From the IMG/VR virus record IMGVR_UViG_3300013125_000002: a DNA stretch of 64,000 bases; one strand, 5' to 3'. The DNA is from a virus. Under the pieces are notes generated by a model. That model had not been told where the DNA came from. It saw only the letters and a program-made list of their open reading frames with translations, and did not search any database. Positions 3,864 through 13,538 of this stretch are shown piece after piece. Within the stretch, counting starts at the first letter, position 1; each line of letters opens with the position of its first letter. Made by a program: the position numbers and the translations under genes.

Positions 3864-4700
3864 CTAGAGAGTTTCGGGGGCGAGCTTGGTCTCGATATAG
3901 GCGACGGGATCGAGACCTGCTTCACGGATGGCACGCTGACGACGTTCCTGGAGCTTATCGATACGTTTCATAGCAACGTGCTTACAGTGTCGAGCGGGGT
4001 GGGACTTGCGGATGAGGTCCTTCTCAGTAGCTTCCTGCTCTGCAAGATACTGCTGGATCTGTTCTCGCTTCTGGGTCAAGGGACCGTCAGCAAACTGCTG
4101 ACGCTCAAGCACCAAAGCTTGGCCTTTTTGCCGCAGCTTCTCGATATTCTCGCTGAGAACTGCGATCTCATCCTCGACCTGCTTCGACCGAACCACATAC
4201 TCCTGCTCAGTCTGAATCATCTGGTCCAGTGCAACGCGACTCTGCGCCAACGCCTCAGCCAATTCCGTCAGCTTCTGGTGATGAGGCAGACCAGCAATGT
4301 CAGCATCAGCCTTGGCGATGATGATCTTTTGGTCATCGATGTTGTCCTCGATCACCGTCAGTCGACCATCAAGCCATCTTTGGATGCGCTCCTGACTCTG
4401 GTCCGGTTGAGTATCCGAAGCTGGCTCCTTGCCTTCCTTAGCCAGCATCTCCGCCTTGACGATCTCTGCAGTCTTGGCTACCCACGCGCGATAGTTCTTT
4501 CGAGCACAGCTGCAGAGAAGCTCCTGCTTGACCGTGTTGTTGCCCTTGACAGTCACCGTCTGCTGGCCGACGACACCACGCCCGTTGCAGTCCTTGCACC
4601 CTGGTTTTGCCCAGTCCACTGGCTTCGAAGAGGGCTTCCTCTTCTCCACCTCAACCATGATGGGTTCCGGAATGTCGCCTTGTACTCTGATCTTTGCCAT
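3864..4700 (-). CDS. Hypothetical protein, N-terminal CxxCxGxG zinc finger plus coiled coil
   Basis: CKDCNGRG...LCSC; heptad-rich C-terminus; GGAGAGG RBS. Confidence 0.6.
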   Translation of the reverse strand: MAKIRVQGDIPEPIMVEVEKRKPSSKPVDWAKPGCKDCNGRGVVGQQTVTVKGNNTVKQELLCSCARKNYRAWVAKTAEIVKAEMLAKEGKEPASDTQPDQSQERIQRWLDGRLTVIEDNIDDQKIIIAKADADIAGLPHHQKLTELAEALAQSRVALDQMIQTEQEYVVRSKQVEDEIAVLSENIEKLRQKGQALVLERQQFADGPLTQKREQIQQYLAEQEATEKDLIRKSHPARHCKHVAMKRIDKLQERRQRAIREAGLDPVAYIETKLAPETL

Positions 4701-9754: not shown

Positions 9755-9978
9755 AAACCCTGAAGCCTTTCAGCCCACTGCTCCATAGCTCGCATCGCTA
9801 ATTGCAGATCAGTGAACTGGGCGTCGAGGGTCAATGTCCACTCGGGGTGCTTGACGATCCCCCGATACTTGATCCCGTCTCCGTACCAAGGTTGCACAAA
9901 AAGAGTCAGAGTAGCAACCCTAGCAATCCATGGTAGCTGGCCAACACCAGTAGGTTGCTGCCAGTCCAGCTTGGCCAC
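9721..9978 (-). CDS. Hypothetical protein (C-terminus overlaps tRNA-Ser)
   Basis: ATG overlaps HNH stop. Confidence 0.45.
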   Translation of the reverse strand: MAKLDWQQPTGVGQLPWIARVATLTLFVQPWYGDGIKYRGIVKHPEWTLTLDAQFTDLQLAMRAMEQWAERLQGLEGAAMVAKPA

Positions 9979-10487
9979 TATGGCACCAACTCAGCGGTCC
10001 AGTACTCTCGCCACTCGACAGGAATCGAGTCCACCTCCCGCAGAGCCACATTGAAGACAGGAACCCATGTCGGTCTCACAGGCTGTGCCCGAAGGGTCAT
10101 TCCTGCCTCACGAAGAGTCAGGTCAGCCTTCTTGTGGTTGCAGCTCTGGCAAGCCATGACGATGTTCTCCCACTCGGTCTTGCCACCCCGAGACTTCGGG
10201 ATGACGTGATCGAAGGTCAGAACTACATCCTTGCCATGGGCTCCACAGTACTGGCAGCGGAACCTATCCCGGGCGAGGACATTCTGACGAGAGAACTTGA
10301 TCCTCTTCTTCTTGGCGTCGATGGCATGCGTGATCCTCACAACCGCCGGCATGCCGACGTTGAAGTGAACCTCACGCCCGTACTCCTCGAGCACCTCTAC
10401 CTTGTTCTTGGCAAGGTAGGCCATCGCCCGTTGCCAGGGCACAGTGTTGATCGGCTGGTACCCCTGATCTAAGACTAAGGTTTGCAC
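9978..10487 (-). CDS. HNH endonuclease (HNH_5/McrA-like family)
   Basis: TLVLDQGYQP...FSRQNVLARDRFRCQYCG...LTFDHVIPKSRGG..WENIVMACQSCNHKK; likely GTG start 10487 (track start lies inside a tRNA). Confidence 0.9.
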   Translation of the reverse strand: MQTLVLDQGYQPINTVPWQRAMAYLAKNKVEVLEEYGREVHFNVGMPAVVRITHAIDAKKKRIKFSRQNVLARDRFRCQYCGAHGKDVVLTFDHVIPKSRGGKTEWENIVMACQSCNHKKADLTLREAGMTLRAQPVRPTWVPVFNVALREVDSIPVEWREYWTAELVP

Positions 10488-13048: not shown

Positions 13049-13063
13049 GTAGGTAGTAGGCGG

Positions 13064-13135
13064 TTGGCCCAGTCGGATTTGAACCGACGACTCCCAGCTT
13101 GTAAGGCTAGTACTCTTCCACTGAGTTATGGGCCA
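13064..13135 (-). tRNA. tRNA-Val(UAC), replacement copy
   Basis: CUAGC-CUUACAA-GCUGG; UGGCCCA/UGGGCCA acceptor. Confidence 0.88.
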
Positions 13136-13511
13136 AAACACACTTCTGCATTCTGTACCTAGCAACTTCTAATCGATGAGCTTCAGTGCATCGCACGCAA
13201 CGGCATGGTGCGGTTTCACTGCGGTATCTGGTGTCAGTCCCATGTGGGGAAAGACGCTGTAGTCGAGTAGCCTCTTTGTGACACTCCCCACACAACACCA
13301 CACACTTCTTCAACTCCAACTCCCGTCGTTGTTTGGACCAAGACCAAATTCGGTGAGACACTTTCTTGGTCGGGTCTTTGTGATGCACCTCTAGTTGATC
13401 CTCTGATCCGCACCCAACACATGGACCATGCTCTTTAATCCATGCATTACGGTTTTCTGACTTCCATCGGAGTTGGTATTGTTTACGTTCCTCTGGATCT
13501 TTGTAAGGCAT
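13107..13511 (-). CDS. HNH homing endonuclease inserted in tRNA-Val
   Basis: MPYKDP...CVGCG...LEVHHKDP...ELKKCVVLCGECH...HGT..RY...CRC..C; ATG in anticodon stem of the split tRNA. Confidence 0.88.
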   Translation of the reverse strand: MPYKDPEERKQYQLRWKSENRNAWIKEHGPCVGCGSEDQLEVHHKDPTKKVSHRIWSWSKQRRELELKKCVVLCGECHKEATRLQRLSPHGTDTRYRSETAPCRCVRCTEAHRLEVARYRMQKCVLAHNSVEEY

Positions 13512-13538
13512 GCGCTCTTCCAGTTGAGCTAACCGCCC
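13501..13538 (-). pseudogene. 5' half of original tRNA-Val(UAC), split by the HNH insertion
   Basis: GGGCGGU UA GCUC AACUGGAA GAGC G CAUGC CUUACAA; matching acceptor strand ACCGCCU at 13058-13064. Confidence 0.8.

Follow-up and report, generated by a model that had tools for sequence, protein, structure and literature searches.

Integrative elements that use tRNA genes as insertion sites bring a new 3' end of the gene with them in attP. Bacterial tRNA genes can also hold group I introns in the anticodon loop. In the Aeromonas phage Aeh1, the free-standing endonuclease gene mobE splits the nrd genes, and both gene pieces stay functional together. Endonuclease genes are likewise known from phage tRNA clusters (SegB, the F-Tfl enzymes of T5 and the HNH proteins of mycobacteriophages), where a link with the diversity of the tRNA repertoire has already been made (PMC2330249, PMC5966550; Aeh1 MobE is mentioned in the former). 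The T4 enzyme SegB, a member of the GIY-YIG family encoded in the tRNA cluster, recognises a tRNA-gene motif, targets tRNA-gene DNA and co-converts flanking tRNA genes; the stop codon of segB is removed by tRNA maturation, which is thought to limit its expression (PMC2330249). The recombination that SegB triggers makes use of microhomology between the tRNA gene and segB (PMC13096335). For the mycobacteriophages, the literature consulted describes the association of HNH genes with tRNA arrays and with repertoire diversity, but not a layout in which the target gene is broken (PMC5966550).

The locus described here resembles T4 segB in that a free-standing endonuclease gene lies in a phage tRNA array, with an ORF end that would be clipped by maturation of the downstream tRNA. 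The nuclease, however, is an HNH protein rather than a GIY-YIG protein, and the SegB literature gave no case of the gene lying inside a broken cognate tRNA gene together with a diverged full replacement (PMC2330249; PMC13096335). The likeness to integrative elements is that a tRNA gene is the target of insertion, that the element supplies the sequence which restores its function and that a displaced piece of the original gene remains; in contrast to them, there is no integrase and there are no att sites, the tRNA that is brought in is whole and heterologous, and the proposed route is break repair. As with mobE of Aeh1, the endonuclease gene interrupts another gene and involves neither intron nor intein, whereas here the interrupted gene no longer functions and a second copy takes its place. 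Another close system is that of the HNH genes in mycobacteriophage arrays (Bixzunavirus LinStu gp169, StephanieG gp170 and Catera gp167, and cluster M; PMC5966550), which belong to the same HNH superfamily and share both the array location and the overlap with a downstream tRNA; identity with the HNH protein studied here is 42% for the LinStu gp169 region and 32% for StephanieG gp170 (E 4e-9). Literature searches on truncated tRNAs or tRNA pseudogenes with homing endonucleases returned nothing relevant, and no description was found of a cassette that carries a cognate tRNA inside its broken target gene. Our verdict is that the locus represents a new form of intronless homing in phage tRNA arrays, SegB-like in its biology and built on the HNH family.

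Layout of the broken tRNA-Val(UAC) gene

The window, by which we mean the whole 64,000-nt stretch of viral DNA analysed (IMG/VR record IMGVR_UViG_3300013125_000002), is phage-like and has, from 10.5 to 18.4 kb, an array of 45 tRNA genes that all lie on the minus strand and enclose a Ro60/TROVE gene. The features at issue are collected in Table 1.

Table 1. Features of the locus in the reading order of the minus strand.
Feature	Position	Strand	Basis or remark
tRNA-Val(CAC)	13794-13720	minus	First element, reading the minus strand downward from 13794
58-aa Cys-rich ORF	13705-13529	minus	Between tRNA-Val(CAC) and the HNH ORF
Remnant, 5' part of the resident tRNA-Val(UAC), 38 nt	13538-13501	minus	tRNA alignment; acceptor strand identical to that of L010
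HNH endonuclease ORF, 134 aa, intact, free-standing	ATG 13511 to stop 13107	minus	phrog_4234 match
Complete diverged tRNA-Val(UAC), tRNA B	13135-13064	minus	ARAGORN and Rfam
ACCGCCT-A, orphan 3' acceptor strand and discriminator of the resident tRNA-Val	13064-13057	minus	Pairing with GGGCGGT
tRNA-Arg(ACG)	13048-12971	minus	Conserved right-hand neighbour and synteny anchor; 8-nt spacer after ACCGCCT-A

The 5' part of a tRNA-Val(UAC) runs directly into the HNH ORF, as the original prediction had proposed. Its letters are GGGCGGT, TA, GCTC-AACTGGAA-GAGC, G, CATGC and CTTACAA, in that order, giving a 7-nt acceptor strand (GGGCGGT), a perfect GCTC/GAGC D arm and the residues U8, A14, G18G19, A21, U33 and A37. 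The tRNA reading stops after the UAC anticodon loop; where a 3' stem strand should follow, the sequence is AGATCC. Aligned locally with the tRNAs of the window, the remnant scores 37, against a maximum of 27 over 200 shuffles, and it is in register, column for column, with 15 phage tRNA-Val genes. It is called by neither ARAGORN nor Infernal, and a 62-nt slice given to Infernal yields no truncated-tRNA call either, as expected for a fragment. Positions 1-26, comprising the 5' acceptor strand and the D arm, are certainly tRNA-derived. Positions 27-38 (CATGC CTTACAA) have the look of an anticodon stem-loop but coincide just as well with the ATG-CCT-TAC-AA start of the HNH family: the HNH ATG (13511-13509) occupies remnant positions 28-30, in the anticodon stem, and codons 2-4 (CCT TAC AAA) cover the anticodon loop.

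At its other end the HNH ORF overlaps a second, complete tRNA-Val(UAC), tRNA B. The stop codon (TAG, 13109-13107) lies inside the 5' strand of the anticodon stem of tRNA B, and the final 29 nt of the ORF, stop included, are shared with it. This tRNA scores 68 bits in Rfam, compared with a gathering score of 29, is called Val(tac) by ARAGORN, and has a cloverleaf as its minimum-free-energy fold (z -2.6). It matches the remnant at 27/38 positions, and it is presumed to be a functional replacement that travels with the HNH gene. The D stems of the cassette tRNA copies, here and at the sites described below, are mostly altered (ACTC/GAGT, GCCC/GGGC, GCAC/GTGC) relative to the resident GCTC/GAGC. 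Immediately beyond tRNA B stands the orphan acceptor strand, which pairs with the GGGCGGT of the remnant through six Watson-Crick pairs and one G-U pair, its first A doubling as the discriminator of tRNA B. Seven-letter words of the ACCGCCT type occur at 3.9e-4 per window position, so that 0.0035 would be expected in the 9 available positions and 0.001 with the trailing A. Over the region, seven contigs from six samples are 99.98-100% identical; the layout is therefore not an assembly artefact, and the observed arrangement is confirmed as real. Exact-pattern scans of IMG/VR for the remnant and for tRNA B gave no match, and no donor of tRNA B was found.

Relatives and recurrence at other tRNA genes

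The syntenic relatives found are L010 (identical with L062), which is distant (Ro60 47% identical) and lacks the HNH gene, and L016. A metagenome scan seeded with Ro60 gave no syntenic relative closer than L010, the 1.7-kb region has no close match among GenBank phages, and a close HNH-less relative of this phage was not found, the cassette being present in 7/7 contigs that carry the HNH gene or the upstream ORF, all of them from this same phage. The tRNA order in L010 is that of the window (Cys, Arg-tct, Arg-cct, ..., Val-tac, Arg-acg, Leu-tag, Met), and a single intact tRNA-Val(UAC), with acceptor strands GGGCGGT/ACCGCCC-A, ends 2 nt before tRNA-Arg(ACG). Its 5' acceptor strand is the same as that of the remnant; overall the two agree at 23/38 positions, the match being strong only in the acceptor stem. 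The original prediction named the lack of an intact GGGCGGT-type tRNA-Val at this locus in relatives as grounds for its refutation, and on that point L010 speaks in its favour. The HNH gene, absent from this site in L010, is represented in L016 by a 48%-identical family member elsewhere in the array, between Arg(tct) and Arg(cct), and this sporadic pattern is that of mobile endonuclease genes. The composition of the HNH gene is foreign, with a GC3 of 0.467 compared with 0.57-0.73 in the phage genes; no donor with a near-identical HNH was found (best protein identity 56%). The nested anatomy, the synteny with L010 and the composition together imply that the HNH gene and tRNA B entered a resident GGGCGGT-type tRNA-Val(UAC). 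We consider it likely that they did so as a two-gene mobile cassette, made up of the free-standing HNH gene and the tRNA-Val(UAC) that it overlaps, which was copied into the resident gene.

The same design is found in finished genomes of mycobacteriophages, with tRNA-Thr or tRNA-Gly in place of tRNA-Val. Among about 200 Bixzunavirus genomes, HNH genes of the superfamily are present or absent at a Thr site and a Gly site. At the Thr site, DirtMonster and Gizmo keep an intact tRNA-Thr(GGT). StephanieG, with the same backbone and the same 59-nt spacer before the site, has nt 1-26 of this tRNA (26/26 identical), then 13 nt that include AAGGTGG, and then an HNH ORF that overlaps a complete tRNA-Thr(GGT) by 72 nt; this tRNA is 47/77 identical to the resident one and is followed by the resident flank. 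The StephanieG type of unit is also present in Mangeria and Catera, with other upstream contexts (15 records in total). At the Gly site, LinStu has an intact tRNA-Gly(GCC), and Gizmo has nt 1-26, followed by a 66%-identical HNH paralogue and a diverged complete tRNA-Gly(GCC), a layout found in 22 records. As to the co-conversion of flanking markers, the Bixzunavirus cassette comes with a heterologous tRNA, accompanied in Mangeria by a heterologous tRNA-Thr(tgt). In the metagenomic locus L017, a 3'-truncated tRNA-Asp(GTC) is followed by an HNH gene and a diverged tRNA-Asp(GTC), and in its relative L027 the upstream copy is whole. On these comparisons, one architecture is common to four tRNA species and at least three phage lineages and has recurred independently.

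The junctions of the mycobacteriophage cases differ from those of the window. At both sites the resident identity ends at position 26, and Shine-Dalgarno (SD) or start-codon letters stand where the anticodon stem had its 5' strand, although letters of the anticodon loop persist (TGGTATG, TGCCAA); the right junction is seamless, with no orphan 3' strand. Positions 27-38 in the window may therefore not be resident-derived. We infer that the mycobacteriophage cassettes keep the old 5' part as leader and homology arm and that crossovers fall within the conserved D arm.

Four further candidates were left uncounted. A tRNA-Leu(CAA) remnant in L007/L008 is borderline (its score of 26 lies between the null 95th percentile of 21 and the null maximum of 27), and L016, taken as a remnant example, reaches only the null 95th percentile. 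The flanking Arg tRNAs of Myrna differ in anticodon, and in Lukilu the HNH gene is convergent with its tRNAs.

Several observations were made in passing. The Lukilu gene (L075:1501-1941) is a 45%-identical family member that overlaps tRNA-Leu(CAA) by 42 nt in convergent orientation; it occurs in six Bixzunavirus genomes and is unannotated in most. In DirtMonster and Gizmo, which lack the gp169-type HNH, the last ~55 nt of that ORF form the spacer between tRNA-Thr(tgt) and tRNA-Thr(ggt) (L076:677-735 and L077, compared with L074:1501-1875), which marks these two phages as deletion derivatives, not naive empty sites. The replacement tRNA-Thr(GGT) of Mangeria (L078:1224-1298) is unannotated in GenBank, as is the HNH paralogue of Gizmo (L081:~487-900), where the record instead gives gp179, an ORF of 66 aa in a different frame; the frame of the paralogue has no ATG, and its start seems to be GTG. 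L010 has a sequence resembling tRNA-Arg(CCG) whose anticodon loop is too long and which ARAGORN does not call (4140-4217) and, next to it, a tRNA-Val(UAC) with C rather than U at position 33 (4218-4293). Ro60/TROVE genes also lie beside large tRNA arrays of other orders in L047, L050, L053, L054 and L070, so the association is wider than this phage.

Could the two tRNA-Val(UAC) sequences instead have a purely local history? The locus might once have held two resident paralogues, or an endonuclease-triggered duplication, with the HNH gene between them and a later 3' deletion in the upstream copy. L027, in which the HNH gene stands between two complete tRNA-Asp(GTC) copies, and L017, in which the upstream one is truncated, have this appearance, and SegB drives the amplification of a tRNA segment in T6 (PMC13096335). 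Such a history would nevertheless leave the orphan ACCGCCT-A unexplained, the arrangement in the window being nested and not tandem, and it sits poorly with the limited identity of remnant and tRNA B and with the single tRNA-Val(UAC) at the L010 site. In Bixzunavirus, moreover, the 5' part agrees perfectly with the intact tRNA of cassette-free relatives and the downstream copy at little more than half its positions, which marks the downstream tRNA as heterologous rather than a diverged duplicate. We regard a local origin as unlikely.

The HNH gene, its start and its translation

Several profile matches bear on the reading of the protein as an HNH (beta-beta-alpha-Me) endonuclease. Positions 1-124 of the phrog_4234 profile ('HNH endonuclease') match residues 1-123 with an E value of 7e-32, and nine further HNH PHROGs also match; the Pfam family PF01844 is matched with E 0.01 at 16.4 bits, below its cutoff of 21.4. 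A search of the PDB with a profile of the family finds the HNH domain of McrA (6ghc, E 0.0085). The AF2 model has a pLDDT of 90.6, and its top Foldseek matches in the PDB (Cap5, T5 SciA, Gme HNH, Cascade-HNH, McrA and GVE2 HNH) are without exception HNH nucleases but weak, with E>=0.15. Homologues number 61 in metagenomes, at roughly 40-56% identity (about 50%). An alignment of 18 sequences preserves the zinc-binding Cys pairs and the catalytic His residues: C31, C34, H44, C70, C77 and H78 do not vary and C74 hardly does, with the CxxC, HH and CxxCH motifs kept. The conserved core extends to about residue 123, and the terminal LAHNSVEEY is read-through into tRNA B. Automatic gene calls (L011, L041, L042) either cut the protein to 93 aa, starting from an internal GTG at 13388 and omitting the first CxxC (Logan contigs), or report no gene (JGI contigs). 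The N-terminus is MPYKDPEERK; M1 is invariant in the family alignment and position 1 of the phrog_4234 profile aligns to residue 1, which together place the start at ATG 13511, where it was originally predicted.

Family members are often found in tRNA arrays. In 18/30 IMG/VR loci the gene is inside a co-oriented array, usually 3-64 nt behind a tRNA, and in seven IMG/VR loci the ORF overlaps the downstream tRNA, as it does in the cluster M phage LilhomieP and the coliphage JohannJBalmer. Many members, however, lie between unrelated tRNAs with no remnant, and targeting of the cognate tRNA is therefore not universal. One member, starting MPYTGEQ, begins ~15 nt after a phage tmRNA gene (L006:2599-3363). 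The window itself has a second HNH gene of a different kind (9978-10487, minus strand; 169 aa, Pfam HNH and HNH_5), whose start lies ~40 nt past tRNA-Leu(CAA), where the array ends.

Why does the HNH ORF begin so exactly on the anticodon stem-loop? The original prediction, in its full version, held that the HNH gene split the tRNA-Val, took its ribosome-binding site from the D-loop and acquired its MPYKD N-terminus, like that of similar phage HNH proteins, from the anticodon loop. The ATG and codons 2-4 do coincide exactly with the letters of the anticodon stem-loop, and the Thr and Gly starts of Bixzunavirus are also at the former anticodon arm, with the loop letters kept. The MPY(K)D start is nevertheless a property of the whole family, conserved at ~50% family identity with synonymous codon variants (e.g. 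ATGCCGTACGCC, ATGCCATACAAG, GTGCCTTACAGG), and members that have it stand either outside arrays or 3-64 nt downstream of a tRNA for Leu, Gly, Arg, Asn, Thr, Met, Asp or Tyr. Any MPYK start written CCT-TAC-AA spells a UAC loop, a codon choice that we estimate at roughly 1 in 16. The derivation of MPYKD from tRNA-Val is thus not supported, though an ancient tRNA origin, which no observation favours, is conceivable. The D-loop GGAAGAG is correctly positioned for a ribosome-binding site but lacks the strength of one: its duplex with the anti-SD sequence, at -3.3 kcal/mol, is no better than background (null mean -3.46), compared with -6 to -12 for most genes of this phage. In its full form, the prediction now appears improbable.

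Translation of the HNH gene is more plausibly weak, or coupled to the 58-aa ORF. The latter carries a CxxC...CxxxC motif, has a strong SD sequence (-8.5 kcal/mol) and, with a GC3 of 0.66, is of native composition; among 5.8 billion proteins it has no homologue except itself. Its last codons are made of the acceptor strand of the remnant, and its stop codon, TAG, is U8-A9-G10 of the remnant. This stop lies 17 nt before the HNH ATG, making the 58-aa ORF a possible partner in translational coupling. The structure of the HNH 5' leader is not unusual (z -0.83), and a scan for promoters and terminators found nothing on the coding strand.

A proposed mobile cassette and its possible consequences

The break of the tRNA reading at the anticodon loop recalls a tRNA gene with a group I intron, in which the HNH gene would lie in a self-splicing intron and the 5' part would be a live exon. 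We reject this reading as very improbable: in place of a 3' exon there are only the 8 nt of acceptor strand, lacking the 3' strand of the anticodon stem and the T arm, no intron family is matched at E<=10 in 1.7 kb, and a whole independent tRNA stands inside the would-be intron. Chance resemblance or an assembly artefact, which the absence of an ARAGORN or Infernal call might suggest, is effectively excluded by the shuffled alignments, the low expectation for the 3' strand, the identical contigs from six samples and the recurrence of the layout in finished phage genomes.

Our preferred reading, insertion of a cassette of HNH gene and tRNA B into the resident tRNA-Val(UAC), retains the central claim of the original prediction and places its events as follows. 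The insertion would have removed roughly positions 27/39-65 of the resident gene. The resident 5' part would remain upstream and provide the HNH mRNA with its leader and start region, the 3' acceptor strand would remain downstream, and the diverged tRNA B would supply tRNA-Val(UAC) function. The left junction probably falls between tRNA positions 26 and 38. Within this interval the 11 nt ATGCCTTACAA serve both as the family's Met-Pro-Tyr-Lys start and as a Val(UAC) anticodon stem-loop, and they are better read as junction microhomology, for which the recombination linked to SegB offers a precedent (PMC13096335), or as cassette leader. At the right junction, any overlap would be at most 3 nt (ACC).

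We further infer a cycle in which the HNH protein nicks or cuts the resident type of tRNA gene and the diverged copy of the cassette escapes. The break would be repaired from a cassette-bearing genome, copying the HNH gene and its tRNA together, and the kept 5' part could act as the left homology arm in further homing. The HNH gene would be transcribed with the tRNA array, and its translation would be poor or would depend on coupling with the 58-aa ORF. RNase P, in maturing tRNA B, would remove the HNH stop codon and so may limit expression, as for SegB.

More tentatively, and with a prospect that we put somewhat short of even, the locus may exemplify HNH cassettes that are widespread in phage tRNA arrays, each joined by the overlap of ORF and tRNA to a tRNA gene of its own and each killing and replacing the resident cognate gene, with the 5' part of the victim kept as leader, start region and left homology arm. 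The target would then probably be DNA of the D arm and anticodon stem, and the replacement copy would presumably be resistant to cutting. Intron-free insertion combined with a full heterologous copy of the tRNA would be another way for such an element to avoid killing the genome that hosts it. If the arrangement is general, the broken 5' parts would be fossils that reveal endonuclease targets, and annotations would need to be corrected, since gene callers truncate or overlook the window HNH, and GenBank phage records lack several of the replacement tRNAs or HNH ORFs. Phages of Mycobacterium smegmatis with and without the cassette make a bench test directly possible.

Finally, if general, such cassettes would provide a mechanism for the turnover of phage arrays tRNA by tRNA. 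If the proposed events are true, they amount to the xenologous replacement of single tRNAs, helping to explain the mosaic nature of phage arrays, and a side effect could be tRNA alleles that escape host anticodon nucleases.
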